A stretch of 64,000 bases of DNA, taken from positions 53,254 to 117,253 of the forward strand of contig JAKQSI010000070.1 in NCBI GenBank assembly GCA_029570205.1, written 5' to 3'. The translations under genes were made by a program, and so were the position numbers. The number at the start of each line of letters is the position of its first letter. The first letter of the stretch is position 1. The notes under the pieces were generated by a model. That model saw nothing but the letters and a program-made list of their open reading frames with translations. It had not been told where the DNA came from and did no database searches. The DNA comes from Candidatus Omnitrophota bacterium (GTDB lineage: Bacteria; Hinthialibacterota; Hinthialibacteria; Hinthialibacterales; JAKPRU01). Positions 21,983 through 64,000 of this stretch are shown piece by piece.

Positions 21983-21985
21983 GAT

Positions 21986-47298: not shown

Positions 47299-47334
47299 GC
47301 CCTGTCATTTCCGATTCCGCAATCCACAATCGGA

Positions 47335-47859
47335 TTACTCAATCTCAAACAACTCTTCCGCCTTCATTTTGAAAATCCGGAGGCCGCCTTCTTCCACGTC
47401 AACCCCTTCATCCGTCCATTTCTTCAGCAATTCTTTGGTGGAGGACTTGAGGGTGTAAGTGACTTTGTTATCCGTACCGTTTTGCGAAATGGTCACTTTG
47501 AACTCATCGGCCTGGACATGCCGAATGTTCTTCTTGCCCATGGTTGCGCCGGTTGCTGCCTGAAGGCCATCGATGATGCAAGATCCGGGTGGCTCCGCCG
47601 GGCATTCCACCACCACGGTCAAACCGAAATACTTCGGGATTTTATGCACAGTCACCGCATGTTCGCCCATGCGTGCCCCCATTGCCACATTCGGTCCCAG
47701 ATGTCCATGGAATCTTTCCAGTTCCTCTACGGTGACGGGGTGAAACTCCACTTTGGAGTGCATCTCCGTGTGGGAATGCGTTTCCGTTTTTGATGCGGGA
47801 ATGGTCATGGTGAGTAATCCTAACGCTGTGATCGGAATGAATAACGCCCAGGTTTTCAT
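47335..47859 (-). CDS. Secreted FmdE-family protein (formylmethanofuran dehydrogenase subunit E-like domain)
   Basis: Signal peptide MKTWALFIPITALGLLTMT; FHGHLGPNVAMGARMG resembles the FmdE HGH motif; GGAGG RBS. Confidence 0.5.
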   Translation of the reverse strand: MKTWALFIPITALGLLTMTIPASKTETHSHTEMHSKVEFHPVTVEELERFHGHLGPNVAMGARMGEHAVTVHKIPKYFGLTVVVECPAEPPGSCIIDGLQAATGATMGKKNIRHVQADEFKVTISQNGTDNKVTYTLKSSTKELLKKWTDEGVDVEEGGLRIFKMKAEELFEIE

Positions 47860-47931
47860 TTTTGCCTCCGAACGATTGGTTTCATTTGTGTTCCACAGGC
47901 TGGAAACCTGTGCCATCCACTTTATGGACGC

Positions 47932-47993
47932 TGAATGACGGCTTTCGCCGGAATGACGGCTTTCGCCGGAATGACGGCTTTCGCCCGGATGAC
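47932..47993. repeat. Three tandem 18-nt units GAATGACGGCTTTCGCCG (family-A half-hairpin units)
   Basis: Contiguous direct repeats; each GCCGGAAT...ATTCCGGC junction can refold as the family-A hairpin. Confidence 0.7.
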
Positions 47994-48033
47994 CGTAGGG
48001 GCAGCCTGTGCAACCTTCCGGAGATCGCCTCTT

Positions 48034-48073
48034 CCCCCCTCTCCATGCCTGGAGACAGGGCCGGGGGGTGAGG
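48034..48073. repeat. Family-B element (CCCCTCTCCA-tgcc-TGGAGA, then CAGGGCCGGGGGGTGAGG)
   Basis: Same architecture as 33626-33662 and 42870-42915. Confidence 0.65.
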
Positions 48074-48081
48074 AAATAATC

Positions 48082-49068
48082 CTACCTCACAATCCGCAAT
48101 CCCCCTCCGCCGACAAGACGTTTGACCTCATCCGGGGTGCACCAGTTCACATCCCCCGGCACGGAATGTTTAAGAGCGGAAAACGCAACACCCCAATCGA
48201 TGCCTTTCTGAACATCCCCATCTTGCAGATACCCATACAGGAATCCTGCCGAGCAGGAATCTCCGCCACCCACACGATCCACAATCTCCACCTCGTAAGT
48301 CCTGGTCTTGTAAACCTTGCCGTCATGCAGGGCGATAGCCGTCCACTTGTTTCGCCAGACGCTCAGGTCTTCGCGAAGGGTAATCAGGACCAATTCAAAA
48401 CCGAATCGATCGTGGAGTTTCCGGGCCACTTCCTCGTAATCTTTTCCCTCGATCTTGAACACCCGCATGGTGTCCTCCTCGGTGGTGATGAGGATATCGG
48501 TATACTTCATAGCCATGGTCATGCACTCCTGCGCTTCCGCCTCGGTCCATAACTTCGCGCGATAGTTCAGGTCGATGCTGACCTTGACCTTGTTCTGTTT
48601 GGCCTTTTCGAGGGATTCCAGGAACGCCTCACGGGCGGTGGGGGAGAGCGCTGCCGTGATGCCGCTTGTGTGGAACAATTTGGCGCCCGAAAGCGCGGCG
48701 TCCCAATTCACTTCGCCCTTTTTGATCCGCGAAATAGCCGAATCTTTGCGGTCATATATGACATTGGACGGTCGCGGGCTGGCTCCGAACTCCAGGAAAT
48801 ACAATCCGGCGCGGTCTTCTTTCGTCCATACGACATGGGAGCAATCCACACCATGCTCGCGCGTTTTGTTGACGATCATCCGTCCCAGGGGATTCGTCGG
48901 TACCCGGGTGACAAACGCCGACGACATTCCCAAGCGGGCGACCCCAATAGCCACATTGAACTCCGCGCCCCCGACTCTAACATCCAGGGTTGCAGTCTGT
49001 TCCAGCCGGTTGAAATCCGGCGGCGACAAACGAACCATTGCCTCACCAAACGTAACTACATCAGCCAT
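48082..49068 (-). CDS. kdgK: PfkB-family sugar kinase, 2-dehydro-3-deoxygluconokinase-like
   Basis: PfkB motifs (GGAEFNVAIG, GGGDSCSAGFLYG); AAGGAG RBS. Confidence 0.8.
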   Translation of the reverse strand: MADVVTFGEAMVRLSPPDFNRLEQTATLDVRVGGAEFNVAIGVARLGMSSAFVTRVPTNPLGRMIVNKTREHGVDCSHVVWTKEDRAGLYFLEFGASPRPSNVIYDRKDSAISRIKKGEVNWDAALSGAKLFHTSGITAALSPTAREAFLESLEKAKQNKVKVSIDLNYRAKLWTEAEAQECMTMAMKYTDILITTEEDTMRVFKIEGKDYEEVARKLHDRFGFELVLITLREDLSVWRNKWTAIALHDGKVYKTRTYEVEIVDRVGGGDSCSAGFLYGYLQDGDVQKGIDWGVAFSALKHSVPGDVNWCTPDEVKRLVGGGGLRIVR

Positions 49069-49257
49069 GAAACCTCGCTCCTTTCTATCTATTTCAAAGG
49101 ACTATCCAGCATTCCATACCTGAACAATGTGACTTCTTCTCCCTCTCCCGCCGGAAAGGGTCGGGGTGAGGGTGTCTCCGGGCGCCACCGGCATCTTGCC
49201 GGTGGACAAGTCTCCCTCTCTCATCCCCATCGGTCCTATTCATCCTGCCCGGTTCTC

Positions 49258-49905
49258 CTACGACCGCGCCTTCCTGACCTCTTCAATAAACCGCCGCGCA
49301 TTCTCTGTAATGGTGGCCCAGTCCCGGTCGGCGATGGCCTTTTTGGGAACCAGATTGCCGCCGACTGCGATGCAGCACGCGCCGCAGCGGATAAACTCGC
49401 CCGCGTTCGACAGGTCTACTCCGCCGGTCGGCGAAAGGCGAATGTGCGGCAGCGGCCCCTTGATATCCTTGAGATATTTCGGCCCGACCGCCGTCGCCGG
49501 AAAGACTTTCACGATATCCGAGCCGCACTCCCAGGCGGTCAGAATCTCCGTTGGAGTGAATGCGCCGGAGATCATCACCTTGCCGTATCGTTTCGCCATT
49601 TCGATAGTCGCCGGATTGAGAGTCGGTGTGACAATATACTCCGCACCTGCCAGGATCACCGCGCGCGCCGTTTCGGGGTCCAGCACAGTCCCAGCGCCCA
49701 TAATGACTTTGCTCCCCATTTCCGCGGCCACCGCCTTGATGACATCCATCGCGCCGGGAGTGGTCATGGTGACTTCGAGCGCCACCAGCCCTCCCTGAAC
49801 CAGCGCGTCGGCCACCTCCGTCAGTTCCTCGCTTCGGTCCGCTCGGATCACGGCGATCACACCGGACTCAATAATGGTATCCAACACCTGTTGCTTTCGA
49901 TCCAT
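49258..49905 (-). CDS. eda: 2-dehydro-3-deoxyphosphogluconate/4-hydroxy-2-oxoglutarate aldolase
   Basis: KDPG aldolase motifs (GVIAVIR, EVTMTTPGA, KVFPA); AAGGGAGA RBS. Confidence 0.85.
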   Translation of the reverse strand: MDRKQQVLDTIIESGVIAVIRADRSEELTEVADALVQGGLVALEVTMTTPGAMDVIKAVAAEMGSKVIMGAGTVLDPETARAVILAGAEYIVTPTLNPATIEMAKRYGKVMISGAFTPTEILTAWECGSDIVKVFPATAVGPKYLKDIKGPLPHIRLSPTGGVDLSNAGEFIRCGACCIAVGGNLVPKKAIADRDWATITENARRFIEEVRKARS

Positions 49906-50050
49906 GAATTTCTCCCTTCGTCGGGTCAAAATGCCTGGACTGATCTTCCCGCTCTCCTGCTATGTTGTGAAGGATACGGCATATAGAGGATGGCGGTTTT
50001 TGCGAGGAAAGGGTACAGTGGAAACTGGTCATACCGGAGAGGCAGGCCCC

Positions 50051-50854: not shown

Positions 50855-51859
50855 ATGACATTACGGATTGGAATTATTGCTTTAGGCAAAATCAGTGAAC
50901 GAACGCATCTGCCTCTGTATAAAGAGGTGAGGGGAGTGCAAGTTGTGGCCGCATGTGACCCCGACGAAGAACGCGCCCTGCTCATGCAGGATCAATTCAA
51001 AATCCCGCGCATTTACAAGTCCTATCAGGAGATGTTTGCCCACGAGGAACTGGATGCGGTTTCGGTCAACAGCCCGCACCGGTTTCACGCGGAACAGGCC
51101 GTCGCCGCCGCAAAGCACGGGCTTCATGTTCTTGTCGAAAAACCCATGGCGCTTTCTGTGAAAGATATTCGCGCCATGATCGCCGCCTCCAGGAAGGCGG
51201 GAAAAGTTCTGATGGTCGAACAGTTCATGCGTTTTCATCCGGCGGTGTATAAGGCCCGCGAAGTGATCCAGTCCGGGAAACTCGGCAAAGTCCTCACGAT
51301 TCGCGGGCATTTCGGTCATGCCGGGCCGGAATACTGGTCGCCGGAGGGCAAGTGGTTCCTGCAGAAAAAAGAAGCGCAGGGTGGAACGATGCTGGATATC
51401 GGTGTGCATGAGATTGACCTGATGCGCTATATCTCCGGCAAGCAGGTGGCTCAGGTTGCCGCTTTCCTGGGGACTCTGAAGAAGAAAATCGATGTGGAGG
51501 ACAACGCGGTTGCGATCCTGCGGTTCGATGACGGAACCCTTGGGACGCTGGAATCCTCCTGGACAAATGATCCGGGCAACTGCCGCACGGAGTTCTATTG
51601 CGAGAAAGGGAACCTGGAGATGAATCTTTCCGGGAAAGATCCCCTGGTGATTTATCGTCCCAACAAAACACCTCAGCCGGTCTCTCTGGCAAAAAAACAT
51701 CCCGAAAAAAGCCCGATGGCCTATTTTGTGAAATGTATCCGAGAGGGTCTGGTTCCACATTGCGATGGTGTAGAGGGTGGCAAAAGTTGCGCCGTGGTCC
51801 TCATGGCCGCCATCTCCGACAAGGAGAAAAGAATCGTCAAAGTCCCGGAAATCGGGTGA
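50855..51859 (+). CDS. Gfo/Idh/MocA family NAD(P)-dependent oxidoreductase
   Basis: IGIIALGKIS Rossmann motif, VEKP motif; AAGGGAG RBS. Confidence 0.85.
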   Translation: MTLRIGIIALGKISERTHLPLYKEVRGVQVVAACDPDEERALLMQDQFKIPRIYKSYQEMFAHEELDAVSVNSPHRFHAEQAVAAAKHGLHVLVEKPMALSVKDIRAMIAASRKAGKVLMVEQFMRFHPAVYKAREVIQSGKLGKVLTIRGHFGHAGPEYWSPEGKWFLQKKEAQGGTMLDIGVHEIDLMRYISGKQVAQVAAFLGTLKKKIDVEDNAVAILRFDDGTLGTLESSWTNDPGNCRTEFYCEKGNLEMNLSGKDPLVIYRPNKTPQPVSLAKKHPEKSPMAYFVKCIREGLVPHCDGVEGGKSCAVVLMAAISDKEKRIVKVPEIG

Positions 51860-51863
51860 TTCG

Positions 51864-51898
51864 ATTGTGGATTGCGGATTGCGGATTGCGGATTGCAG
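51864..51898. repeat. Five tandem heptads GATTG(T/C)G immediately after the oxidoreductase stop
   Basis: The reverse complement CGCAATCC(A/G)CAATC recurs at 47306-47322, 48087-48100 and 29286-29300. Confidence 0.6.
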
Positions 51899-52071
51899 GA
51901 TAACAGGGAGGGGCGCAACCGTCATTCCGGCGAAAGCCGGAATCCAGCGTCCACACGCATAACGCTCGTGATAGCCTTTCTACTTCGAATAGCAGGACGG
52001 TTCCATTCCGTCCGCTATGTCCACTCTCCGACTCCTCCAAAAAATAAAAATCAAAAATTTCGAAAAAAAGC

Positions 52072-52099
52072 TAAAGGTTTTGCTAAGGTTTGCCGATAA
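52072..52099 (+). promoter_or_regulatory. Sigma-28 (FliA)-like promoter TAAAGGTT-N12-GCCGATAA, 1.1 kb upstream of flagellin 1
   Basis: 8/8 match to the -10 GCCGATAA and 7/8 to the -35 TAAAGTTT; spacer one nt longer than the E. coli consensus. Confidence 0.4.
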
Positions 52100-52362
52100 A
52101 GGAACCGACAAGGCAGTAAACCCTTTATGAGGTGTCTGTCGAGGACATCTCCGGGGTTGGCGTTTTCCGTCTGTGGGCATACGGCGAGGCGATACGTCAA
52201 TCGGCCCACAGGGAGCTCTCGGCCCTCTGCGATGGATATCGCGGAGAGGATTCAGAGGAGGATAGTAGCAAGGCCTGGGTGACGCTCATCGGGGCGTTCC
52301 TCCGGCAGGTAAGAATGCGGGTGCCTCGGAAGTATTCTTACCTGTCTGACAAAAGGCGAAAA

Positions 52363-52512
52363 TACATCGAGTCATTGCTGGCATCCCGGCCAAGAGCATG
52401 GGTCCGGTGAACGTGACCACCCTCCCGCGCTCTCATGTGAGTAATGGCTTGATCGACCGCCGCAGCCACTGTAGCCGGATTTCGATCCTGCAGGCGGCTA
52501 CGCCTTTTCAGT
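52363..52512 (+). repeat. Copy 1 of a ~110-nt structured element (conserved blocks AGCATCCCGGCCAAGAG, TGGCTTGATCGACCGCCGCAGC, CTGCAGGCGGCTACGC)
   Basis: Direct repeat of copy 2 at 52953-53060 with a 41-nt insertion; inner GGAT-ttcg-ATCC tetraloop hairpin. Confidence 0.5.
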
Positions 52513-52952
52513 CTCAACGGACCCACCCCTTCGCAGGCTGACGGATTCAACCTGTACTCGCTCAAGGCCAACCGATTGATTCACAACAGAAGGAACCGAG
52601 CCGGGGGCCGGTGTAATCCGGCCTTCCCGGAAGGCATCAACAGATCGGCCCGCCGGTATTCTCAACACGTATCCCGATCGTCCCGGCGCCCGAACGGTTG
52701 ATCCGCCTTCCGCCGGGTACCGGCTGACAACCGGCCTCCACCTCGGTTACAGAAACAGTGGAAGGGCGAGGTCCCAAAGCTGTCTCAGAACGTGATCACT
52801 GACCTGGAGCCCTCTCCCCCAAAGATTGGGGGAGACACAGAGGGGGTTGAGTCAGTCGGACATTAAGGAGCAACATAGACGCGAAAACAGGAGGAATTGC
52901 GCGGACAGAGGAGAACAGGACCGATGATCGCGTGGCCCGGTTAAAATAATTA

Positions 52953-53060
52953 AGCCATAACCAGCATCCCGGCCAAGAGAGTGGGTTATGGCTTAATCGA
53001 CCGCCGCAGCACACCGCAGCCCTATTTGGGTCTGCAGGCGGCTACGCTTTATCGTCTTGC
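52953..53060 (+). repeat. Copy 2 of the ~110-nt structured element, with a 13-bp outer stem TTAAGCCATAACC/GGTTATGGCTTAA
   Basis: Same conserved blocks as copy 1. The 22-nt variable segment between CCGCCGCAG and CTGCAGGCGG has the same length in both copies. Confidence 0.5.
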
Positions 53061-53115
53061 CAGGAAAGGTCGTATTCGGTTGTCTCTCCGAAGTTCCGAT
53101 CTTTCGTATCATCTG

Positions 53116-53145
53116 TTATCGGCAGTTCCTCCCAAACATTAAGCG
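53116..53145 (-). promoter_or_regulatory. Sigma-28-like promoter on the minus strand (TAATGTTT-N10-GCCGATAA), pointing leftwards into the repeat region
   Basis: Reverse complement of 53116-53145 gives TAATGTTTgggaggaactGCCGATAA. Confidence 0.35.
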
Positions 53146-53218
53146 ATTCTACACATTTTTTTCAATTTTTTGCGGGCACGGATGATTTTCCCGCAGGAGA
53201 TTCACGGAGGAAACTGTC

Positions 53219-55624
53219 ATGGTCATCTCCAGCCTGACCCGAAATATCCCTGCTTTGGATGTTATTCTGCGGATGCACCGCACGGAAAGCAACCTCAGCG
53301 CCAACATCACCCGTCTGTCTTCCGGCCTTCGAATCAATACTCCCGCCGATAGTCCGGGCGACTTTGTCACCCTGAGTCGCCTGGGCAGTCGTATTCGGGG
53401 GATCGACCAGGCAAGCCTTAATTCCCAAACTGCGTCCAACATGGCGGCCACCGCGTCAAACGGGATCAGCGAAATGATCTCTCGCCTCCAGTCGATCCGG
53501 ACGAAAGCGGTCGCTGCAGCATCCACCGGAACCTCCGATCGTATTACGCGAGCCGGATACCAGGCCGAGATCAACCAGCTGATCGACGACATGGACCGCA
53601 TCGCCTCCGGGACCTCGTTTAACGGAAAGAATCTGCTTGACGGAAGCTATGCCAGTAGCACCGAGTTCGTCGAACCGAACCGGTTCAACGGGTCTATTTC
53701 CTTTGGGGCAACTTCCTCTACCCTTCGGTCCGGAACCAGCATCCTCAACATCGTGCAATTGGATCCCGGATCCGAACGATTTGTGATCGGCGACACTGGC
53801 GGGATCAGTCTGGGAATTCAAAACCGAACCGACATCGCCGTCTCCATCGGCCAACTCATCGACATGGGAACGGGGCTGACCGCCAATGTGACGGACGACT
53901 TGGACACGCTCAATTTCGGAAAAGTCTCCCTCATCAACAATGGGACGATTCAATTCACCGGTAACCTTGCGGATGGGGTGACTGCATTTGCAGGCCAGGT
54001 TTCTATCGGCGGCGGCCAGGATATCAATGACCTGGTTACGGCCATCCAGGCCGCGATTGACGCAGCGGAAACCGGTATCGGCGTCAACGGTGCGGGCACG
54101 GGACCTTACGAAACCGTGGTCTCCTACGACAACACCACCGGACGGCTGGAGTTCACCAACGGGCAGGGAAATACCATTTCCCAGTTCTCAATCGCATTTA
54201 CGGTCAAGGACAACACCGGAACCACGCAGACCACCACGGGAAGCACACGCACCGCCAATATCTACAACCCGCAAGGGGGAATCGGAACGGTCTCCGGCGC
54301 TCAAATCGGGAACTCTCTGTCTTCCATCACCGGCTCCACCTTCGACCCCGGCACATTTGAAATCACGGTCAGCGACCGGATTGCCGCGCAACAGCGCACC
54401 ATTTCGACGACTTATGCCTTTACGGATTTTGGGGGCGCTCCCGTCGGTGCAGGTACGAACATTAACAATACCGCGTTGTTCAACGGTTCGATCACGCTCT
54501 CTCTCAACAACGGCGACACGATTGACTTTACCGGAACCAATCCCGATGGAACGACGTTCACGGGTACGATCACCATCGCGGCAGGGGACCCGGCTGTCGG
54601 AAACGGCATTGCACGGAGATACAGCGACCTGATCGCCGAGTTGAACTACCGCGATCAGCGCGGAACATTCTACGGGTGGAACCAGGCCACCGCGACGCTT
54701 TCCGCCGGGAAAATCCAACTGATCGATGATGTTGCCGCCACCTCCAGCACAGCCATGCAGATGGTGGTTAATACGGCGGGCGGGGATGCAGTGGATGACG
54801 GTGTTGTAGTGTATTCCGGCAACGCGGAACGGGCGACGATTTCCATTGCAGGCGGCGCAAGTCAGACGGTGGAAAGCGGGCAGGTGGTAACCCTGGAAGG
54901 CGCGGACTTGAATGCCTCCGGACAGGATTCCCAAGTTACGTTTCGTGTCGGACGGAATCTCTTCGATGGCAGCGATGACCTGGAGATTACCGCCCAGGAA
55001 TACATTGCCAGGTTAAACAATGGACCGGCGGTCACATTCCGCAACGGCGACCAGGGGGTATTCATTTCCGATGGGAACAATCCCACCGGCGATATCGCCG
55101 GAGCACAACAGGTCCAACTTAACTTCGACACGGTTTTGGGGATTACTTCCAATGCCTCTTCCGGTGGCGAGAACTTCGTCCTTACAACCGTAGCCGACCG
55201 GCTGAATTACCATATCGGCCCCGATGCCTGGGAGGACCGCATGTTCTCCTATTTCAATGTGCAGTCCTCCAACCTGGGGATCTCCGAAACCCGAAATCTC
55301 GGCAATATCAGTGTGACGACTCTCACGGGCGCAAATGATGCCATCGAGGTCATAGACGCTGCGCTGGACCAGCTGAACGTTGTTGCGGGTGTTGTCGGCA
55401 GCCTGGAAACCCGTATGCAGGACACCTCCAGTCAACTCGATCTCTACTCTCTCAATCTGGACACCGCCTTTTCGACAATCGCCGATGCGGACATGGCGAA
55501 AGAGACAACCAAACTTGCAATGAACTCACTCCTGATGACTTCGCAGACGGCGGCGTTGCTCCAATCGACAATGTTGCCGACCGAAATTATCCCGCTTCTG
55601 CTTGGAATCGACTTGAAGTCATAA
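53219..55624 (+). CDS. Giant flagellin (801 aa): conserved N- and C-terminal flagellin domains with a ~500-aa T/G/N-rich central domain
   Basis: N-terminus NLSANITRLSSGLRINTPADSPGDF; C-terminus LETRMQDTSSQLDLYSLNL...MAKETTKLAMNSLLMTSQTAALLQ; GGAGG RBS. Confidence 0.85.
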   Translation: MVISSLTRNIPALDVILRMHRTESNLSANITRLSSGLRINTPADSPGDFVTLSRLGSRIRGIDQASLNSQTASNMAATASNGISEMISRLQSIRTKAVAAASTGTSDRITRAGYQAEINQLIDDMDRIASGTSFNGKNLLDGSYASSTEFVEPNRFNGSISFGATSSTLRSGTSILNIVQLDPGSERFVIGDTGGISLGIQNRTDIAVSIGQLIDMGTGLTANVTDDLDTLNFGKVSLINNGTIQFTGNLADGVTAFAGQVSIGGGQDINDLVTAIQAAIDAAETGIGVNGAGTGPYETVVSYDNTTGRLEFTNGQGNTISQFSIAFTVKDNTGTTQTTTGSTRTANIYNPQGGIGTVSGAQIGNSLSSITGSTFDPGTFEITVSDRIAAQQRTISTTYAFTDFGGAPVGAGTNINNTALFNGSITLSLNNGDTIDFTGTNPDGTTFTGTITIAAGDPAVGNGIARRYSDLIAELNYRDQRGTFYGWNQATATLSAGKIQLIDDVAATSSTAMQMVVNTAGGDAVDDGVVVYSGNAERATISIAGGASQTVESGQVVTLEGADLNASGQDSQVTFRVGRNLFDGSDDLEITAQEYIARLNNGPAVTFRNGDQGVFISDGNNPTGDIAGAQQVQLNFDTVLGITSNASSGGENFVLTTVADRLNYHIGPDAWEDRMFSYFNVQSSNLGISETRNLGNISVTTLTGANDAIEVIDAALDQLNVVAGVVGSLETRMQDTSSQLDLYSLNLDTAFSTIADADMAKETTKLAMNSLLMTSQTAALLQSTMLPTEIIPLLLGIDLKS

Positions 55625-55768
55625 AAACCAACCGATCGCAGGATCGGAAAAGGAGGTTGAAAATTCGCGAAATGACGTAGTTGTAAGTCCTGGAAATTCC
55701 GAGTACAATAGCCGTCGGGGTCGGAGGAAAGGACTCCTTCGGCTGGGGTCGAGGGTGTTACCCGTGCT

Positions 55769-55776
55769 ATCCGATA
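55769..55776 (+). promoter_or_regulatory. Possible sigma-28 -10 element TCCGATAA, 133 nt upstream of flagellin 2
   Basis: 7/8 match to GCCGATAA; the context CCGATAAAGG is identical to 52093-52102. No convincing -35. Confidence 0.25.
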
Positions 55777-55901
55777 AAGGTGTCATTCGGCAAGGGCGAC
55801 GCGTGCGTCGCCCCTACCGGACGATACCAGGCATCGCTCCCGGAACAGGGGGCATGGTCGGAAGTGGAATAATCAACACAAACACAGCATCACGGAGGAA
55901 G

Positions 55902-58313
55902 ATGGTCATGGATTCCCAACGGATTGGCAGACAATTATTCAATTATTCTCAATACCAGGCGCTTTACTCGAACAAATTACAGAAGGTTCTCGAATCGCTC
56001 TCGTCGGGGTTGCGGATCAACCGGGCGGGGGATGATGCGGCGGGGCTGTCCATCGCCAAGCGGCTTCAGGCACAGTTCAGTTCCCTCAATCAGGCCATGT
56101 CGGATGCCCAGTCCAGTCTGAATGTCGCGGCTGTCGCGGACCAGGCGTTGGGCGAGACCTCGGATCGCTTGGGGCAAATGCGTGAACTTGCGATCCAGGC
56201 GGCAAACACCGGCGTATATGACAAGCAATCTCGGCAGGCGCTCCAGGCAGAACTCAGCCAGTATGTGGATGAAATCAACCGCATCGCCGGTGCAACGCAG
56301 TTCGGAACCAACAGGCTTCTGAACGGTGATCTTTCGGCACAGGCCGGTCTCCGTGCGGGTCAACCGAACATCGGAGCAACGGTGGATACCGGGCCGTTTG
56401 CATCCACGCTGTCCACGGAAACGAATTACCTCACGATCACCCAGACCCGTCAGGGATCGGCCCAGATCCGCGCGGGAGAAGCCTACGGCCGCACACAAAC
56501 AATCAACCTGGGGGTGCAGAATGCGACGGATATCGCGGTCACCACGGGGACCATGTTCAATTCCGCCGCTGCTGCTCCCTCAGCGGCGGGCGACAATCTG
56601 ACCGATACCACGTTCAATTCGGTCACCCTGCAGGCAGGTGGCACAATCACATTCCAGGGCCAATTGGCCGACGGAACCACGGGCTTCTCCGGAACGCTCA
56701 GCATCGGGGCCGGAACGACGATCCATGATCTGGTCAACACGGTCCAGGCTGCCATCGACCAGGCCGAAACCGGGCAGGGAATCAATACCGCAAGCGGAAC
56801 GGGCGCTCGCGAAACCAATGTCCGATTCAATGCCACGACAGGCCGGATAGAATTTGTCAACAGCGCCGGGAATGCAGTCTCGGAGTTTGATATCAACTTC
56901 ACGGTCGAAAATGCCGCCGGAGTTCAGCAGACCCGGGTTGGTGTGACCCGGCAGGCCCAGATGAACGGTGTCGCGACCGGCGCGCAAGTCGGCAATAATG
57001 TGACCGCCATTACCGGCAACACATTCGACACCGGCCGGCTGAATATCACCGTGACCGATGTCCAGGCTGCGACCAACCGGCGAGTGGAAAGCAATATCGC
57101 GTTTCGCGACCAGGGTGGCGCGGCGCTTGCCGCCGGGGGACAACTGGTGGGAGCAGTCTATAACGGTGTTACCCTCGCGGCGGGAGACACTATTCAACTC
57201 CAGGGAACCAATTCTGACGGCACGACGTTTACCAACACGATCACAATTACCGCCGCCGGAGTGGATACCGGGGCAGGGAACGGGACAGCCTCGACATTCC
57301 AGGACCTGGTTGACGAAATGAATGTCCGCGACAATGCCATGGCAGCGGGCGGAGCGGGCAACCAAAGCGGATTCACCTCCGCGCGGGCGACACTCACCGG
57401 CAACGGGACCATCCAGGTCGTGGACGATCTCGCCGGGACTTCTCAAACCAACTTCACGCTCACCGTCAACGACCGTACCCCCGTCGGTGGTCAGACAGCC
57501 GGAACGATGGTGGATCGCGCGCGCGTTGTTGCCGCCGGAAACGCCGAGTCGGCCACGGTGCGCATAAACGGCGGACCGGCGCAGCGAGTCGAGGCCGGGC
57601 AGATGGCAACGCTCTATGGACAGAGAGACGCGACTGGAAATAGATCGCAGCTCACCATGCGGATCGGAACCGGCCTTACCGCCGGAACGGATGTGATGGA
57701 TGTCCGCGCCGATGAATATGTGGGCCGGCTGAACAACGGCACGGCGGTCACATTCCAGGCCGGCGACCAGAATGTCACGTTCACCAGCGGCGCGGCCACA
57801 GGTGTCGCCGAGACGCTCACCATGGATTTCGGGGCTGTTCTGGATATCCCCGGTGTCGGAGCGGCGAACGCCCAGACTGTGATTATTTCCGCCACGAATC
57901 GAAATGCCAATTTTCAGGTTGGAGCGTATGCGGACCGGAACATGCCGCTCTTTTTGGGCGATGTTCGGGCGAACCGGTTGGGCCTCGGTGCAGGACAGAC
58001 CCTTGAGGATATCGATATTACCACCCTCTCCGGCGCGGAGCAGGCCATCGGGATCATTGATGCCGCGCTGGAGGATGTCAATACCAGTCGAAGCCGGATC
58101 GGGGCGTTTTCGAACCGAATGGAGAGTTCGACGCGGGATATGGGGGTCGCAATCGAGAACCTCACAGCGGCCTATTCCCGCATGGCCGATACGGATATGG
58201 CCCGCAGTTCAACCCGTCTCGCGACAGAGAATCTCCTGATGCGGTACAACCTCGCTGTGCTGACACAGACCAATCAGTTGCAAAACCAGATGTTCACCGG
58301 GCTGTTGCCGTAG
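55902..58313 (+). CDS. Giant flagellin paralog (804 aa from MVMDSQ; the ORF-track call is 852 aa)
   Basis: N-terminus LESLSSGLRINRAGDDAAGLSIAKRL; C-terminus RIGAFSNRMESSTRDMGVAIENLTAAYSRMADTDMARSSTRLATENLLMRYNLAVLTQTNQLQ; GGAGGAA RBS. Confidence 0.85.
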   Translation: MVMDSQRIGRQLFNYSQYQALYSNKLQKVLESLSSGLRINRAGDDAAGLSIAKRLQAQFSSLNQAMSDAQSSLNVAAVADQALGETSDRLGQMRELAIQAANTGVYDKQSRQALQAELSQYVDEINRIAGATQFGTNRLLNGDLSAQAGLRAGQPNIGATVDTGPFASTLSTETNYLTITQTRQGSAQIRAGEAYGRTQTINLGVQNATDIAVTTGTMFNSAAAAPSAAGDNLTDTTFNSVTLQAGGTITFQGQLADGTTGFSGTLSIGAGTTIHDLVNTVQAAIDQAETGQGINTASGTGARETNVRFNATTGRIEFVNSAGNAVSEFDINFTVENAAGVQQTRVGVTRQAQMNGVATGAQVGNNVTAITGNTFDTGRLNITVTDVQAATNRRVESNIAFRDQGGAALAAGGQLVGAVYNGVTLAAGDTIQLQGTNSDGTTFTNTITITAAGVDTGAGNGTASTFQDLVDEMNVRDNAMAAGGAGNQSGFTSARATLTGNGTIQVVDDLAGTSQTNFTLTVNDRTPVGGQTAGTMVDRARVVAAGNAESATVRINGGPAQRVEAGQMATLYGQRDATGNRSQLTMRIGTGLTAGTDVMDVRADEYVGRLNNGTAVTFQAGDQNVTFTSGAATGVAETLTMDFGAVLDIPGVGAANAQTVIISATNRNANFQVGAYADRNMPLFLGDVRANRLGLGAGQTLEDIDITTLSGAEQAIGIIDAALEDVNTSRSRIGAFSNRMESSTRDMGVAIENLTAAYSRMADTDMARSSTRLATENLLMRYNLAVLTQTNQLQNQMFTGLLP

Positions 58314-58365
58314 TTGGTTTATGTCCCCCCTCAATCCCCCGTGAACGGGGAAAAGTATTCTCGTC

Positions 58366-58403
58366 TCCCTCCCCCGTTTACGGGGGAGGGTTGGGGGTCA
58401 GGG
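58366..58403. repeat. Family-B element (TCCCTCCCCCG-ttta-CGGGGGAGGG, then TTGGGGGTCAGGG) downstream of flagellin 2
   Basis: 11-bp stem; preceded by a second hairpin CCCCG-tgaa-CGGGG at 58336-58349. Confidence 0.6.
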
Positions 58404-58588
58404 TTCCCAGGGTGTCGCCGGCATCCTGCCGATGATTCGCCCGTAACAGGGGCATCTCGCCCATGACAACAAAATTGGACAGCCATCCATCCTTGTATTC
58501 CCCCAATCCCGCAATTCTCTTGCCTCTTTTTCTTTAATTTTCAATTCTTATCACTCCACACTCTAAATAGTAGACAAAACAATGCTGT

Positions 58589-58798
58589 TTACTCCACCGC
58601 GTAATGGACCGACGGTGCATGAAAGAACTTGCGGACGACATCAGGTTGTTTCTGGATACTCCACAGGTAGTCACGCACATTGGCTACCATGTCCTCTCGG
58701 CTGGAAGCGCGCCGGCGGCCCACCGCGTTCTGTTTCACATCGGGATTAAGGAACTCGTCGGGATTCAGGTCGGGCCTGTACGAGGGAAAGATGCTCAC
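58589..58798 (-). pseudogene. C-terminal remnant of an IS630/Tc1-mariner-family DDE transposase
   Basis: PSYRPDLNPDEFLNPDVKQ...VRKFFHAP matches the conserved C-terminus (PPYSP-LNPIE ... FF) of IS630 transposases; no intact N-terminal part upstream. Confidence 0.55.
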
Positions 58799-58926
58799 AC
58801 GAATCCGGTTCGAAGGTCCTTTGGCTCTCTTGACTCAGGGAACACGCATCCGGTTTTGTCATAATCGGGCAGTCTACCCTGGTCAATTCGATAGACAAGC
58901 CACTTGCCTGCTATTGATTATTCGGA

Positions 58927-60366
58927 TTAGTAATTTTCTTTCCCCATCAGGTATCGGTCCACATCCGCCGCCGCTTCCCTTCCCTGCATAATGGCGCGAA
59001 CCACCAGCGATGCGCCGAGGACACAATCCCCGGCGGCAAAGATACCCGGGACGGATGTCCGGTGCCCCTCCTGTACGGCAAGATTTCCTGCGTTGTCAGC
59101 GCTTATTTTCAGCCCTTCGACTAATGGCCCGTGCTCGGTGTGCAGAAATCCCAGCGAGAGTAGAACGAGATCGGCATTCAGTTCAAAATCCGAGCCGGGG
59201 ATTTCACGGAATGCCGGTTTTCCGGATTGGCCCGTATCGGTCCATTCCAGTTTGACACAATGCAGTTTTTTGACTTGGCCCCCTTCTCCCAGAAATTCTC
59301 TAGTCAGGATGCTCCACAGTCGTGTACATCCTTCCTCGTGTGAGGTAGAGGTTTTTAACACTTTCGGCCAAACGGGCCAAGGATTGTCTGCCGGACGTAC
59401 ATCCGCCGGTTTCGGCAGGATCTCAATCTGACAGATGTCGATTGCGCCCTGACGTCGACTGGTTCCGACGCAATCGGAGCCGGTATCGCCACCGCCGATG
59501 ACGACTACTTTTTTTCCGGAAGCGAGGATTTCCTGTTCTTTCGGTATACGATCCCCGGCATTGCGCTTGTTCTGCTGAACCAGGAAATCCATGGCGAAAT
59601 GAATGCCTCCCAGATCCCGTCCGGGGATGTTCAGGTCCCGTGGTCTCGAAGCGCCCGCTGTTATCAGGATGGCATCAAAGGTGCGCTGTAGGTAGCGGGG
59701 CGAAAGATCCGTCCCGGCGTCGACGCCGGTTTCAAAACGGACCCCTTCTTCCCGCATCTGATTCAGGCGTCGGTCGAGTATCCACTTTTCCAGTTTGAAA
59801 TCAGGGATTCCGTATCGAAGGATACCGCCGATCCGGTCGGCCTTTTCAAAGACAACAACCTCGTGGCCGTTCCGGCCCAATTGCTGCGCGGCGGCCAGGC
59901 CGGCGGGGCCGGAGCCGACAATGGCTACTTTCTTTCCAGTCCTTTCCTCCGCCGGCTGTGGTTGAATCCAGCCCTCTCGCCATCCGCGCTCGACGATTTC
60001 CAGTTCGATCAGCCGGATGGCAACCGGCGGCTGGTGGATCGACAGGGTACAGGCGGCCTCGCATGGGGCCGGGCAAATCCGCCCGGTAATTTCCGGAAAA
60101 TTATTCGTTGAGTGCAGGATATCCAGCGCCCGACGCCATTGTCTTCTGTACACTAACTCGTTGAAATCCGGCATACGGTTCTTTACCGGGCAGCCGTAAA
60201 CGTGGCAGAATGGAATCCCGCAATCCATGCAACGCGCAGCCTGTCTTTCCACGCGGTCCCACGGCAGAAACTCTTCGATTTCGCGGAAATCCCGTACGCG
60301 GACCTCGACCGGCCGTTTGGGCGCGTCTTCACGGGTATACTCAAGAAATCCTGTAGGTTTAGGCAC
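58927..60366 (-). CDS. gltD: Glutamate synthase small subunit (NADPH-dependent, beta chain)
   Basis: Probable GTG start giving MPKPTGFLEYTRED; this lies 2 nt after the gltB stop with a GAGG RBS. The ORF-track start at 60450 overlaps gltB by 90 nt. Confidence 0.85.
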   Translation of the reverse strand: MPKPTGFLEYTREDAPKRPVEVRVRDFREIEEFLPWDRVERQAARCMDCGIPFCHVYGCPVKNRMPDFNELVYRRQWRRALDILHSTNNFPEITGRICPAPCEAACTLSIHQPPVAIRLIELEIVERGWREGWIQPQPAEERTGKKVAIVGSGPAGLAAAQQLGRNGHEVVVFEKADRIGGILRYGIPDFKLEKWILDRRLNQMREEGVRFETGVDAGTDLSPRYLQRTFDAILITAGASRPRDLNIPGRDLGGIHFAMDFLVQQNKRNAGDRIPKEQEILASGKKVVVIGGGDTGSDCVGTSRRQGAIDICQIEILPKPADVRPADNPWPVWPKVLKTSTSHEEGCTRLWSILTREFLGEGGQVKKLHCVKLEWTDTGQSGKPAFREIPGSDFELNADLVLLSLGFLHTEHGPLVEGLKISADNAGNLAVQEGHRTSVPGIFAAGDCVLGASLVVRAIMQGREAAADVDRYLMGKENY

Positions 60367-63300
60367 GGTACACCTCTTCGGTAGCCGAAACGGTCTCATC
60401 ATCCAAATGCTGTTGCAAACGCATCCGTTCCAGGACTTTCCGGTACTCAATCGGCATTACTTTTACAAATAGCGGGAGTTGCGACTCCCAATTGTCCAGG
60501 ATCATTTTGCCTCGGATGCTGCCCGTATACCGGACATGTTGCTCGATCATGGTTCGCAATTGCTGTTTGTCCTCAACGGTCCACACACTTTCCAGATCGA
60601 CCATATCGAGATTACACCGCGTGTCGAACAGTTGCGTTTCATCGTAGACATAGGCGATTCCCCCGCTCATTCCGGCCGCGAAATTGGACCCGGTCGGACC
60701 GAGAATGACCACCACGCCGCCGGTCATATACTCGCATCCGTGGTCACCGACGCCCTCTACAACGGCCGATGCGCCACTATTCCGAATCGCAAAACGTTCT
60801 CCGACAATGCCGTAAACATACAACTCACCTCCCGTTGCACCGTACAGGAAGACATTGCCGCCGATCACATTCTCGTGCGGCAAATAGGTCACATTGGCGG
60901 GCGGAACCAGTACAATCCGACCGCCGGACATGCTCTTACCCAGGTAGTCATTCGCGTCCCCCACGATGCAGGCGGTGATCCCCGGGGCAAGAGCCATACC
61001 GAAACTCTGACCGGCAGATCCTTCGAACCGGATTTGAATGGTGTTGTCCGGTAACCCTTTTGCGCCGTATCTCCTCGCAATCTCACCGCTGAGCATTCCG
61101 CAAACCGTGCGGTGAACATTTCGGATGGGCATTTCCAGTTGCACCGGTTCACCGTTTTCCAGAGCGGGCGTGCAGAGTCGAATCAATTGACAATCGAGCG
61201 CTTTGTTCAATTCGTGTTCCTGCCTGCGAATGCAGCGCAACGGCCCTCCATTTGTGTTTCTCGGTGGCGCAAGGATCGCGCTGAAGTCCAAGCCTCGCGC
61301 TTTCCAATGGTCGATAGCCGGTTCGACTTCCAGGAGGTCCACGCGCCCGATCATTCCATCGAGCGTCCGAAATCCGAGTTGAGCCATGTACTCGCGCAGT
61401 TCCTGCGCCAGGAACCGGAAGTAACGTTCGACATATTCGGGTGTTCCGCCGAATCGCCGTCGCAATTCGGGGTCCTGTGTCGCGACACCGACAGGACAGG
61501 TATTCAGATGACACTTGCGCATCATGACGCATCCCAACGTTACCAGAACGACCGTGCCGAACCCGAATTCCTCCGCGCCCATGAGAGCCGCAATCGCCAC
61601 ATCACGGCCGGTGCGGAGTTGACCGTCCACCTGCACACGAATTCGGTCACGCAGGCGGTTGTTTACGAGAGTTTGCTGTGTTTCCGCAAGTCCGAGTTCC
61701 CAGGGCAGACCGGCGTGCTTGATCGAAGTGAGCGGAGACGCGCCCGTTCCGCCATCATAACCGGAAATGAGTACCATATCGGCCTTCGCCTTGGCCACAG
61801 CCGCCGCCACTGTGCCGACACCCGCCTCGGAAACCAACTTAACCGAAATTCGGGCATTGGGATTGACCGCTTTCAAATCGAAAATCAGCTGCGAAAGATC
61901 CTCAATAGAGTAAATATCATGATGCGGGGGCGGCGAAATGAGGGTCACCCCCGGAATGGTGTGACGTACGCGGGCGATGTCCTCATTTACTTTATGGCCC
62001 GGCAGTTGGCCGCCTTCACCGGGTTTCGCGCCCTGGGCTATCTTAATCTGTAATTCTTTACTTTGAACAATGTACTCGGTGGTAACACCGAAGCGAGCCG
62101 ATGCGACCTGTTTGATATTGGACCGCTTGCTGTCGCCGTTCGGTAACGGGTAATACCGCGCAGGGTCTTCGCCCCCTTCGCCGGAGTTGCTGTTGGCGCC
62201 CAGGCGGTTCATGGCGATGGCGATGGTTTCGTGCGCCTCCCTGCTGATGGATCCGAACGACATCGCGGCGGATACGAATCGCGGAAAGATCGCCTCGACA
62301 GGTTCTACTTCCTCAACAGGAATCGGCTCCGTTTTCTTGAACCGAAACAGGCTGCGGAGAGTGGCACACCCGTGGGACTGCTCATTTACCAACCGCGAGA
62401 ACTCCCTGTAAGCCTTTTCGCAATTCGCCCGTACAGCATACTGGAGATGATAGACAACCTCCGGCGACATGAGGTGTTTCTCGCCGCCGTTGCGAATGTG
62501 GTAGTCGCCGCCCGGATCGAGAAGCGGCGCCGGTTTTCCGCGGAGAGGGAATCCCCTTCGATGCCGAGCGCGGGTTTCCGCAGCAATTTCATTCAGGCTG
62601 ATTCCGCCGATTCGGGAGGCCGTGCCGCAGAAGTAGCGATCGACAACGCTTCGATTCAGACCGACGGCTTCAAACATCTGCGCGCCCAGGTAACTGCGTA
62701 CGGTAGAGATTCCCAGGCGGCTGAAGGTTTTCAGTAGACCCTTCTTTATCGCGGTAATGTATGCGTCCACAGCCTGATCGGCTTTGATTTCCTCTTCCAG
62801 CAACCCCAAGTCCGCCATTTCGCGGATGCTCGACAAAGCGACATACGGGCAGATCGCGTTCGTGCCATATCCGAGAAGCAGTGCGAAGTGCATGATTTCG
62901 CGTGCCTCGCCCGTTTCGACAACCAGGCTGGCGGAGGTGCGCAACCCTTTACGGATGAGATGGTGATGCAATCCCGCTGCCGCCAGCAGGGCCGGAATCG
63001 GCGCGTGTTCACGATCCGAGCGGCGGTCCGTAAGGATCAGGATCGTTGCATCGTTCCGGATATGTCGTTCCGCACGGCGAAAGATCGTATCGAGCGCCTC
63101 GGCCAGGGCCTCACCGTTGCCGTCCGCAGGGAACAGGGTGTCGATCTCCGCCGGGATGATATCCGGATGCGTGGTCTGGCGAAGGCGCATCATGTCCTGC
63201 GGCGTCAAAAGGGGATGAGGCAATTTGAGACGCGCGCAATGTTCCGGTGTTTCGCCGAGTAGATTTTTCTCCCGTCCCACAAAACCGGTCAACGACATGA

Positions 63301-64000
63301 CTAATTCTTCCCGAAGAGGGTCGATGGGCGGATTCGTCACTTGCGCAAAAAGTTGTTTGAAATAGGAAAACAGCAATTGTGGGCGATTGGACAGAACCGC
63401 CGGTGCCGCGTCGTTCCCCATGGACCCGACCGCCTCCTGCCCGCGCGAGGCCATCGGCGAAAGAACCCTTTTCAGCTCTTCATCCGTATAGCCGAATGCG
63501 TGTTGTTTCCGACGAAGAATATCGGGGTCCTCTTTCGGGATTTGAGGGGGAACAAACAGCCCGCGCAATCCGATGACATGATCTTTCAGCCAGTGGCGAT
63601 ATGGGCGATGGCGAGAGATCTTCGCTTTGACTTCGTTATCCGGGACGATTCGGTGTTGGGCAAGATCGACCAGGAACATCCTGCCCGGTTGTAGCCGTCC
63701 ACACCGAAGAATCCGGTCCCCGGCGATCTCCAGCACGCCGGTCTCCGATGCCATGACAACCATGCCGTCACGGGTAACGGTATACCGAGCCGGACGAAGA
63801 CCGTTGCGGTCCAATGTTCCACCGATGTAACGCCCGTCGGTAAAGATCAACGCCGCCGGGCCATCCCATGGTTCCATAATGGCCGCGTGGTATTCGTAAA
63901 AGGCCCGCTTATCCTCGCTGATATGGAATTTCGACCCCCACGCTTCCGGAATCATCATCATCACGGCGTGCGGAAGCGAACGTCCGGCCGCTACGAGCAG
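60359..64000 (-). CDS. gltB: Glutamate synthase large subunit, 5'-partial (N-terminus beyond window end)
   Basis: The frame stays open upstream of the listed start (..LLVAAGRSLPHA-MMMIPEAW); GATase-2, FMN and GXGXG-beta-helix domain motifs present. Confidence 0.9.
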   Translation of the reverse strand: MLVAAGRSLPHAVMMMIPEAWGSKFHISEDKRAFYEYHAAIMEPWDGPAALIFTDGRYIGGTLDRNGLRPARYTVTRDGMVVMASETGVLEIAGDRILRCGRLQPGRMFLVDLAQHRIVPDNEVKAKISRHRPYRHWLKDHVIGLRGLFVPPQIPKEDPDILRRKQHAFGYTDEELKRVLSPMASRGQEAVGSMGNDAAPAVLSNRPQLLFSYFKQLFAQVTNPPIDPLREELVMSLTGFVGREKNLLGETPEHCARLKLPHPLLTPQDMMRLRQTTHPDIIPAEIDTLFPADGNGEALAEALDTIFRRAERHIRNDATILILTDRRSDREHAPIPALLAAAGLHHHLIRKGLRTSASLVVETGEAREIMHFALLLGYGTNAICPYVALSSIREMADLGLLEEEIKADQAVDAYITAIKKGLLKTFSRLGISTVRSYLGAQMFEAVGLNRSVVDRYFCGTASRIGGISLNEIAAETRARHRRGFPLRGKPAPLLDPGGDYHIRNGGEKHLMSPEVVYHLQYAVRANCEKAYREFSRLVNEQSHGCATLRSLFRFKKTEPIPVEEVEPVEAIFPRFVSAAMSFGSISREAHETIAIAMNRLGANSNSGEGGEDPARYYPLPNGDSKRSNIKQVASARFGVTTEYIVQSKELQIKIAQGAKPGEGGQLPGHKVNEDIARVRHTIPGVTLISPPPHHDIYSIEDLSQLIFDLKAVNPNARISVKLVSEAGVGTVAAAVAKAKADMVLISGYDGGTGASPLTSIKHAGLPWELGLAETQQTLVNNRLRDRIRVQVDGQLRTGRDVAIAALMGAEEFGFGTVVLVTLGCVMMRKCHLNTCPVGVATQDPELRRRFGGTPEYVERYFRFLAQELREYMAQLGFRTLDGMIGRVDLLEVEPAIDHWKARGLDFSAILAPPRNTNGGPLRCIRRQEHELNKALDCQLIRLCTPALENGEPVQLEMPIRNVHRTVCGMLSGEIARRYGAKGLPDNTIQIRFEGSAGQSFGMALAPGITACIVGDANDYLGKSMSGGRIVLVPPANVTYLPHENVIGGNVFLYGATGGELYVYGIVGERFAIRNSGASAVVEGVGDHGCEYMTGGVVVILGPTGSNFAAGMSGGIAYVYDETQLFDTRCNLDMVDLESVWTVEDKQQLRTMIEQHVRYTGSIRGKMILDNWESQLPLFVKVMPIEYRKVLERMRLQQHLDDETVSATEEVYRA

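Follow-up and report, generated by a model that had tools for sequence, protein, structure and literature searches.

In Campylobacter and Helicobacter, the paralogous flagellin genes flaA and flaB lie away from the basal-body genes, and one of the two stands behind a sigma-28 promoter; the Campylobacter paralogues are very similar to one another and flaB uses sigma-54. A position apart from the basal-body genes is common for flagellin genes. As to leaders, those of flagellins controlled by CsrA and FliW are short, a cyclic diguanylate (c-di-GMP) riboswitch and a switch lie upstream of flgB in Clostridioides difficile, and invertible flagellar switches are known in Salmonella and C. difficile. 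Flagellins longer than 800 amino acids (aa) have been defined as large and those longer than 1000 aa as giant (Thomson et al., 2018; PMC6248924). The 792-aa flagellin of Geovibrio thiophilus has four outer domains rich in beta structure and forms a filament 240 Å wide (Fields et al., 2024; PMC11532411). Here, we describe a tandem pair of flagellin genes and the leader that precedes it in a stretch of 64,000 nucleotides (nt) from Candidatus Omnitrophota bacterium (assembly GCA_029570205.1, contig JAKQSI010000070.1, positions 53,254 to 117,253 of the forward strand). This whole stretch is called the window below, and coordinates count from its first nucleotide.

The explanation that best accounts for the locus as a whole, and which we consider probable, is that an old tandem pair of large structural flagellins is driven by sigma-28 through a leader with two RNA checkpoints. 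Large multi-domain flagellins in tandem paralogues are an already known kind, and the pair described here is real and functional-looking. The leader is more surprising than the flagellins, as it appears to hold a covarying RNA that has no match in Rfam and that is bracketed by convergent sigma-28-type elements.

Two adjacent genes encode large flagellins

The two genes and the domains of the first product are as follows.

53219-55624, plus strand: flagellin A (gene 1), 801 aa, 83 kDa, isoelectric point (pI) 4.3
Flagellin A, domains: N-terminal D0/D1, aa 1-144; outer region, aa 145-708; C-terminal D1/D0, aa 709-801
55908-58313, plus strand: flagellin B (gene 2), 801 aa from the ATG at 55908, about 83 kDa, pI 4.7

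A preliminary description of this DNA, made from the sequence alone, had reported a tandem pair of large flagellins with canonical N- and C-terminal ends. This is borne out by two open reading frames (ORFs) on the plus strand whose products exceed the Pfam cut-offs for both Flagellin_N (102.4 and 102.1 bits for gene 1 and gene 2, respectively; cut-off 26.6) and Flagellin_C (37.1 and 56.2 bits; cut-off 23). Beyond these two domains, neither whole protein had a Pfam match at E<=0.1. The best NCBIfam flagellin models gave 124 bits with gene 1 and 168 bits with gene 2, although none of them reached its own curated cut-off with either protein, and the FlgL model TIGR02550 gave 66 and 71 bits, under its cut-off of 127. 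By these profile scores, both proteins classify as flagellin and not as the hook-filament junction protein FlgL, which has the same Pfam domains. The product of gene 1 is identical to HQL63368.1, which is called flagellin by NCBI and is present in several assemblies, including GCA_035417385.1.

A full-length AlphaFold model (mean predicted local distance difference test score, pLDDT, of 84) showed helices at residues 10-131 and 702-794 and a beta-rich insert at residues 145-700. When this model was compared with solved structures using Foldseek, flagellar filaments came out on top, the first being that of G. thiophilus (9au6; E 1e-23, 16% identity). As modelled, the protein has the canonical helical D0/D1 fold, in which ND1 and CD1 flank the inserted outer domains.

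The two proteins could be aligned from end to end with 40% identity (E 2e-145), and the segments that had been quoted earlier as shared by the two centres are present in this alignment. The ATG of gene 1 has GGAGG 8 nt ahead. For gene 2, the ORF as listed begins at a GTG at position 55755, and CACGGAGGAAG stands before two ATGs, one at 55902, which would give 803 aa, and the other at 55908, which gives 801 aa. The ATG at 55908 is most likely the start, because its spacing from the Shine-Dalgarno sequence equals that of gene 1 and because it is the sole ATG kept in the orthologue from L009 (labels of this kind denote loci of related species, taken with flanks of +/-10 kb). Of the lengths first given, 801 aa stands for gene 1, and the figure of about 804 aa for gene 2 is corrected to 801 (803 if the ATG at 55902 is used). 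The large size of the central domain is likewise upheld, but it measures about 560 aa and not about 500. The label "giant" does not apply: at 801 aa each, and with the published threshold for giant flagellins at >1000 aa (PMC6248924), both proteins are large flagellins, below the giant class.

The flagellins form a small, old family

A search with residues 145-708 as a single sequence returned 94 protein clusters, almost all of 780-870 aa and with both flagellin ends. They come from uncultivated bacteria labeled "bacterium", "Ca. Omnitrophota" or Ca. Hinthialibacter antarcticus; a metagenome-assembled genome (MAG) of Ca. Hinthialibacter has been reported to encode flagella (PMC9324843). An exhaustive phmmer search of the centre against 1.84 billion representative proteins produced 39 matches only. 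The five most distant full-length matches (614-661 aa) have both flagellin ends, and two truncated matches have Flagellin_C. Every family match tested is thus a flagellin by its domains, and the family appears small and lineage-restricted. The family would consist of large structural flagellins and be specific to one lineage, an uncultivated group whose flagellin relatives include Candidatus Hinthialibacter.

A neighbour-joining tree of 85 family members showed three clades. Gene 1 falls in clade A, with members of 777-805 aa, and gene 2 in clade B, with members of 791-812 aa; clade C is a larger group (820-874 aa). Genes of clades A and B were found in tandem, with A first, in MAGs of about ten related species (the pairs include L006, L009, L010, L019, L020, L022 and L040). 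Since this order recurs on contigs of many species, the duplication would be older than those species, with both copies kept; by this evidence, the A/B duplication is ancient. The earlier proposal of a whole-gene duplication followed by divergence agrees both with the homology found across the N-terminal, central and C-terminal regions and with the separation of the two genes into two clades of the tree. In a locus of clade C (L007, 1-13113), three large flagellins (863, 823 and 830 aa) are found with a Maf-like (MptE-like) gene interleaved and flaG after them. This arrangement would link the family with canonical accessory genes of the flagellum, and perhaps with flagellin glycosylation. A Ser+Thr content of 19-21% would also be compatible with O-glycosylation.

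Both genes, centres included, bear the signature of purifying selection. The ratio of nonsynonymous to synonymous substitutions (dN/dS, Nei-Gojobori) was 0.11 for gene A and 0.09 for gene B, and lay between 0.09 and 0.12 across every region of both. Between A and B, the outer region showed 44.5% identity, as compared with 32.6% for the N-terminal and 35.2% for the C-terminal region, an inversion of the usual flagellin pattern. The identity of the D0/D1 core was 0.37 between clades A and B and 0.38 between A and C, versus 0.55 between B and C. The outer region is therefore better conserved than the core between the paralogues because the core of clade A is divergent and fast-evolving.

The unusual divergence of the clade A core suggests that gene 1 may hold a specialised role. 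It could encode a minor, hook-proximal or conditional flagellin, with gene 2 building most of the filament, in a FlaA/FlaB-like division as in Campylobacter and Helicobacter. In line with this possibility, the NCBIfam flagellin score of gene 1 is below that of gene 2 (124 versus 168 bits), the conserved RINRAGDDAAG segment appears in it as RINTPADSPGD, and the elaborate leader described below precedes clade A genes only. Gene 1, however, has kept its full outer region under purifying selection (the dN/dS of 0.11 above), its flagellin score is still higher than its FlgL score, and it comes first in the presumed operon, behind the sole plus-strand sigma-28 promoter found. On balance, we regard a specialised gene 1 as possible but somewhat doubtful, and continue to view both genes as encoding structural flagellins.

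The outer region is composed of flagellar-type beta domains

In the preliminary description, the centres were thought to be unusual, perhaps with inserted enzymatic or adhesin-like domains. A phmmer search of the centre against the sequences in PDB found no match, and Pfam, searched with the whole proteins, gave nothing for the central region at E<=0.1. Modelled alone, with the family alignment, the centre gave a pLDDT of 90.6 and a predicted template modelling score (pTM) of 0.83. The model consists of beta strands nearly throughout, with two short helices, and its best structural likenesses were to FliD D2-D3, to other flagellar axial proteins and to immunoglobulin (Ig)-like sandwiches. Foldseek of the central model against PDB gave weak antibody-type Ig matches only. 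No enzyme or adhesin fold was found in the structural comparison of the centre, and the representative of the Geovibrio-type D2-D5 outer-domain cluster resembled it neither in sequence (at >=30% identity) nor in rigid structure. When the family profile was aligned against itself, two modules of about 150 aa were found to match each other (probability 93%, E 3.8e-7).

53843-54307, plus strand: internal repeat module 1 of flagellin A (aa 209-363; hhalign)
54407-54865, plus strand: internal repeat module 2 of flagellin A (aa 397-549; hhalign)

The models show an outer region of all-beta, flagellar-type domains, among them a duplicated module of about 150 aa. On structure prediction, then, the centre is essentially made of ordinary flagellin domains (FliD D2-D3-like and Ig-like) with no additional enzymatic or adhesin fold, which does not agree with an unusual or enzymatic centre. 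Nor can the repeat architecture be called unusual, since internal domain duplication has already been described for large flagellins (PMC6248924).

The outer regions of both proteins are acidic and devoid of cysteine; the acidity of the surface is seen in 56 D+E versus 23 K+R. Throughout clade B, the outer region (about 570 aa; roughly aa 147-715 of gene 2) has no lysine at all (9 of 9 members, including P0022-P0029), and arginine is present at a mean of 19 per protein. The mean number of lysines in the outer region is 5.6 in clade A and 10.5 in clade C.

It could be that the large centre confers a function other than motility, either as a flagellinolysin-like enzyme or as an adhesin that binds polysaccharides or minerals. 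For a flagellin, the outer region shows an unusual degree of conservation (44.5% against 33-35% for the ends), with many invariant residues, and its acidic surface recalls that of the G. thiophilus filament, for which mineral adhesion has been proposed (PMC11532411). Lattice contacts of the outer domains, however, could equally explain the conservation, and the centre contains no Pfam domain. Moreover, the HExxH motif is absent from both proteins, which have a total of 1-2 histidines each. The flagellinolysin model NF033876 reached 39-43 bits against a cut-off of 205, and it matched at the D1 helices only, in short stretches beside them (aa 115-149 in gene 1; in gene 2, about 70 aa before and into the C-terminal helices). 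We therefore consider a non-motility function unlikely.

A conserved, structured leader precedes flagellin A

The following elements were found upstream of flagellin A.

52072-52099, plus strand: predicted sigma-28 (FliA)-type promoter, TAAAGGTT-N12-GCCGATAA, 1.15 kb ahead of the flagellin A ATG
52100-53218, plus strand: long non-coding leader without a called gene, presumed 5' untranslated region of the flagellin operon
52301-52349, plus strand: conserved leader hairpin, an inverted repeat with arms of 16 nt
52362-52509, plus strand: RNA motif copy 1, diverged, with an insertion of about 39 nt in the P1 hairpin
52945-53053, plus strand: RNA motif copy 2, the best-conserved leader block; covariance model 106.8 bits
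53116-53142, minus strand: antisense sigma-28-type element, TTAATGTT-N11-GCCGATAA, directed into the leader

The gap of 1.36 kb between the oxidoreductase gene upstream and gene 1 was overlooked in the preliminary description, and it is no empty spacer, as it holds a conserved, structured leader together with the predicted promoters. Gene callers put no gene there in five assemblies. An ORF at 52132-52410 (92 aa) was rejected as a gene on account of frame-breaking indels relative to L009 and of the lack of a Pfam match. In an alignment of the leader from four species, some blocks are nearly invariant, whereas synonymous changes in the flagellin genes have reached saturation over that comparison (dS about 2.5).

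The element at 52072-52099 is a close match to the sigma-28 consensus, from which we infer promoter activity. It is the sole match to TAAA-N14-17-GCCGATAA in the 64 kb, where 0.01 are expected by chance. It is conserved at the corresponding place in L009, L010, L011, L006, L033, L022 and L020, and in the relatives it lies 730-1190 nt ahead of the start codon. A sigma-54 site (GG-N10-GC) was not seen by eye in the approximately 100 nt before the ATG of gene 1. The element on the opposite strand is found 77-103 nt ahead of the flagellin A ATG in 12 of 12 loci (the window and 11 others), and reads TAAAGTTT-N11-GCCTATAA in 8 of the 12. This suggests that it is a conserved antisense promoter, convergent with the sense promoter, and that a FliA-dependent antisense RNA may be made from it.

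Between the two elements, the leader carries two copies of a putative RNA motif. In copy 2, P1 forms a hairpin of 14 bp around the loop GCAUCCCGGCCAAGAG; after it come the linker AAUCGACCGCCGCAGC, a second hairpin that is variable, then GGCG-GCUA-CGC and a U-rich tail. The fold of this copy has a z-score of -3.8. Copy 1 is a direct repeat of copy 2, which the covariance model recognises with 52.3 bits (E 1e-8), and has a fold energy of -57 kcal/mol (z -2.5). Double changes were seen at 12 of the 14 pairs of P1, with 94% of the cells paired, and the covariation score was 0.303, versus 0.143 in shuffles (0 of 500 reached the observed value) and at most 0.097 in slid controls, all of these counts coming from an alignment fitted to the model. 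The P1 cells include 24 G-U versus 5 A-C, and pairing of the plus-strand RNA is therefore favoured. The 16-nt loop, the linker and CUACGCC are almost invariant across the motif copies. Most of the strong copies have a short GGYG-CUA-CGCC hairpin at their end, usually followed by a U-rich tract, and the combination of hairpin and tract suggests a choice between termination and read-through. In the separate hairpin at 52301-52349, one compensatory change was found in L009, where GTAAGAAT/ATTCTTAC is replaced by GTGAGAAT/ATTCTCAC. Pairing of the P1 loop with a GGAUG near the ribosome-binding site was considered and discarded, as L009 has GGACG at that place while the loop stays invariant.

An Rfam 15 scan of 51000-59200 at E<=1 gave no match in the leader and a single, chance-level match (Pab91) outside it. 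Besides the window, the motif occurs at L006, L009, L019, L020, L022, L033, L034, L044, L064, L066 and L069. In pattern scans, run over metagenomes and over one genome for each species, the block turned up in this lineage only; about three quarters of the pattern matches were chance occurrences in GC-rich coding DNA and were discarded on inspection. The block is always on the same strand, 190-630 nt upstream of a clade A flagellin, and a clade B gene comes next wherever the contig reaches far enough past the motif-bearing clade A gene. The covariance model detected a pair of copies in the leader of most loci, with possibly a third copy at one locus; the rest of the window and the clade C loci gave no match to it. 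The leader may be a new regulatory RNA. A more specific proposal is that the tandem motifs belong to an undescribed RNA class, a ligand- or protein-sensing attenuator that would gate flagellin synthesis between convergent sigma-28 promoters, with antisense opposing sense transcription. This proposal is tentative, and may well be wrong.

Alternatively, the leader blocks could act as DNA, either as palindromic operators or as the ends of an invertible promoter switch for flagellar phase variation. P1 is a near-perfect palindrome, which scores 25 bits on the reverse strand too, and the promoter-like element nearest to gene 1 is directed away from the gene. The 24 G-U to 5 A-C cells, however, fit a plus-strand RNA, and covariation is seen in P1, whereas neither the 16-nt loop nor the asymmetric flanks vary. 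Furthermore, a single orientation was found in 12 of 12 assemblies, and the antisense element has no bracketing inverted repeats. A role as DNA thus appears improbable, and we retain RNA as the preferred reading of the leader blocks.

GC-rich stem-loops of the form CCCTCCCCC...GGGGGAGGG were also noticed in intergenic DNA, at 52810-52850 and 58325-58393 as well as in the L009 leader; they look like members of a dispersed repeat family.

Ribosome-binding site, spacer and transcript end

Two further elements concern the beginning and the end of the translated part of the presumed transcript.

53172-53212, plus strand: candidate CsrA-type sites, with a hairpin GCGGG-[CACGGAUGAUUUU]-CCCGC that has GGA in its loop, and with CACGGAGGAA overlapping the Shine-Dalgarno sequence
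58367-58390, plus strand: 10-bp GC-rich stem-loop, CCCTCCCCCG-TTTA-CGGGGGAGGG, 54 nt past the flagellin B stop

In the predicted fold, the stem and the GGA of the hairpin at 53172-53212 are kept in L009 and are not kept in the more distant L006; in L010, the hairpin loop at gene 2 no longer has its GGA. The GGA sites at the ribosome-binding site resemble those of CsrA-controlled flagellin leaders, a likeness that is one of resemblance only.

The spacer between genes A and B is poorly conserved. Because neither a conserved promoter nor a plus-strand terminator was found in it, we infer that gene 2 is co-transcribed with gene 1. The sequence CCGATAA at 55771 was rejected as a sigma-28 -10 element for gene 2, as this stretch is missing in L010 and there is no TAAA at -35. 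Downstream of gene 2, the stem-loop at 58367-58390 might mark the end of the transcript, which we suggest with low confidence; it was not called in the terminator scan, as its tail is not T-rich.

The pair is not a foreign island

By Pfam, the window contains genes for sugar and heme metabolism. Upstream of the leader are genes for a 2-keto-3-deoxy-6-phosphogluconate (KDPG) aldolase, a PfkB kinase, a hypothetical protein and a GFO/IDH/MocA oxidoreductase (50855-51859), and downstream of flagellin B are gltD and gltB, on the minus strand, with the following fragment at their edge.

58589-58798, minus strand: fragment like the C-terminus of an IS630-type DDE transposase, a 69-aa ORF, 276 nt past flagellin B

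The preliminary description had placed the pair, as an island, between the oxidoreductase gene on one side and a remnant of an insertion sequence plus gltBD on the other, with no flaG, fliD, fliS or basal-body genes in its flanks. The lack of such neighbours was confirmed, with no flagellar gene among the ORFs of at least 200 aa of the window, and so were the oxidoreductase gene and gltBD. For the neighbours at 43892-49929, the absence of flagellar genes was read from their Pfam records. The remnant is weakly supported: its match to Pfam DDE_3 is below threshold, at 19.3 bits against a cut-off of 28.6 (E 0.0011), and covers only positions 112-145 of the 146 in the profile. The term "island" itself does not hold. 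The GC content over the pair is 0.55-0.62, near that of the neighbours, with gene 2 slightly higher (0.60-0.62 versus about 0.55), and the upstream synteny is retained in relatives with 86% and 64% identity in flagellin A. In L010, a relative at 88%, DUF6259 directly follows flagellin B, without gltBD (L010, 6376-8825); in this genome, gltD and gltB, with the transposase fragment at the edge, sit between flagellin B and DUF6259 (58589-63964). Because the upstream synteny is kept and because gltBD is missing from that place in L010, the transposase fragment is best read as the mark of a local rearrangement and not of an imported flagellin island.

Horizontal acquisition or decay of the pair as an island, with silent or accessory genes, is highly improbable: the lack of flagellar neighbours in the window, the transposase fragment 276 nt downstream and the slight rise in GC over gene 2 could speak for it, but the ORFs are intact with a dN/dS of about 0.1, the aldolase, PfkB kinase and GFO/IDH/MocA genes also lie upstream in the relatives at 86% and 64% flagellin identity, the A-B pair and its leader are conserved in about ten species, and the transposase fragment is particular to the gltBD junction of this genome.

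Other features of the surroundings were noted. About five heptamers, GATTGCG or GATTGTG, lie at 51863-51900, approximately 4 nt past the stop of the GFO/IDH/MocA gene, with a longer run in L011. At 30875-33472 (plus strand) lies a gene for a PAS-containing activator that depends on sigma-54. There are three URO-D-like genes (11620-12804, 24767-25903 and 40224-41327), one of which is a full-length hemE in a heme cluster at 20975-25903 (with ferrochelatase, an oxidase and a HemN-like gene); the other two are divergent paralogues.

Discussion

In the explanation that we prefer, the helical D0/D1 cores of flagellins A and B would polymerise into a flagellar filament, and the outer region of about 560 residues would form an acidic, cysteine-free and lysine-poor coat, giving a thick filament. 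Because the outer regions are better conserved between A and B than the cores are, the two proteins might co-assemble in one filament with a structurally constrained outer layer. Transcription would begin 1.15 kb upstream, at the distal sigma-28 promoter, and pass through the long leader, in which the two motif copies would serve as tandem checkpoints for read-through or termination. The sigma-28 element on the opposite strand could add antisense control, and the GGA sites at the ribosome-binding site could add a CsrA-like control of translation.

Several observations weigh against this explanation. For the proteins, they are the unusual divergence of the clade A core and the lack of other flagellar genes in the window, at the ORF length scanned. 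For transcription, no promoter for gene 2 was found in the A-B spacer. For the leader, the covariation of P1 was counted in a model-fitted alignment, the pairing of the 3' half of the motif is ambiguous, with registers that differ by species, and the short GGCG/CGCC hairpin is weak as an intrinsic terminator. The idea of the leader as a CsrA sponge also had to be given up, with 29 GGA versus 26.7 +/- 3.8 in shuffles.

With these proteins, the catalogue of large flagellins gains a well-modelled family that is restricted to one lineage, and no solved flagellin matches their outer architecture closely. That the outer region is more conserved than the core, together with the absence of lysine from that of clade B, hints at a constrained surface lattice. 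The leader would offer a case in which control of flagellin production by RNA, perhaps by antisense RNA too, could be tested outside model organisms, and its sequence signature is clean enough for detection in metagenomes. If true, the reading of the leader as an attenuator with an antisense component would amount to a new regulatory layer for late flagellar genes, so far in one uncultivated lineage.

Comparison with known systems

The leader recalls two kinds of described control. It resembles the leaders controlled by CsrA and FliW (hag of Bacillus subtilis and flaA of C. jejuni; PMC6529632, PMC4894983) in the GGA of a predicted hairpin loop and in another GGA at the Shine-Dalgarno sequence, just ahead of a flagellin gene with a putative sigma-28 promoter, although the hairpin is not kept in L006; unlike those, the leader described here has a large covarying motif, the conserved loop of which has no GGA. 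As in the riboswitches and attenuators of flagellar leaders, the leader is long and has conserved, folded elements in tandem, with a hairpin and then a U-rich tract after each of them. It is matched by no Rfam family at E<=1, the c-di-GMP classes included, and its terminator-like hairpin has 4-6 bp only.

With the flaA/flaB genes of Campylobacter and Helicobacter, the pair shares the arrangement as adjacent flagellin paralogues, and the solved filaments of both genera are among the top Foldseek matches. It differs from them in the 40% identity of its members and in the structured leader of 1.1 kb on the first gene. The D2-D3 domains of FliD (HAP2; 5h5w, 6kty and 5fhy) are like the outer region in fold only, with 8-13% identity, and FliD does not have the D0/D1 termini of flagellin.

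The giant and large flagellins of Oceanospirillales (Bermanella marisrubri and Oleibacter marinus; PMC6248924) are similar in that the centre has been enlarged via internal domain duplication and that a thick filament is expected. Those proteins, however, are longer than 1000 aa and single-copy, and their DE/DX regions also occur in flagellins of Pseudomonas and Campylobacter (PMC6248924), whereas here the proteins are tandem paralogues of 801 aa and the outer region has 39 relatives in 1.84 billion proteins. The G. thiophilus flagellin (9au6; PMC11532411) is like the present pair in length (792 versus 801 aa), in its canonical D0/D1 and in its multi-domain, beta-rich and acidic outer region, and G. 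thiophilus, too, has several similar flagellin paralogues within one genome.

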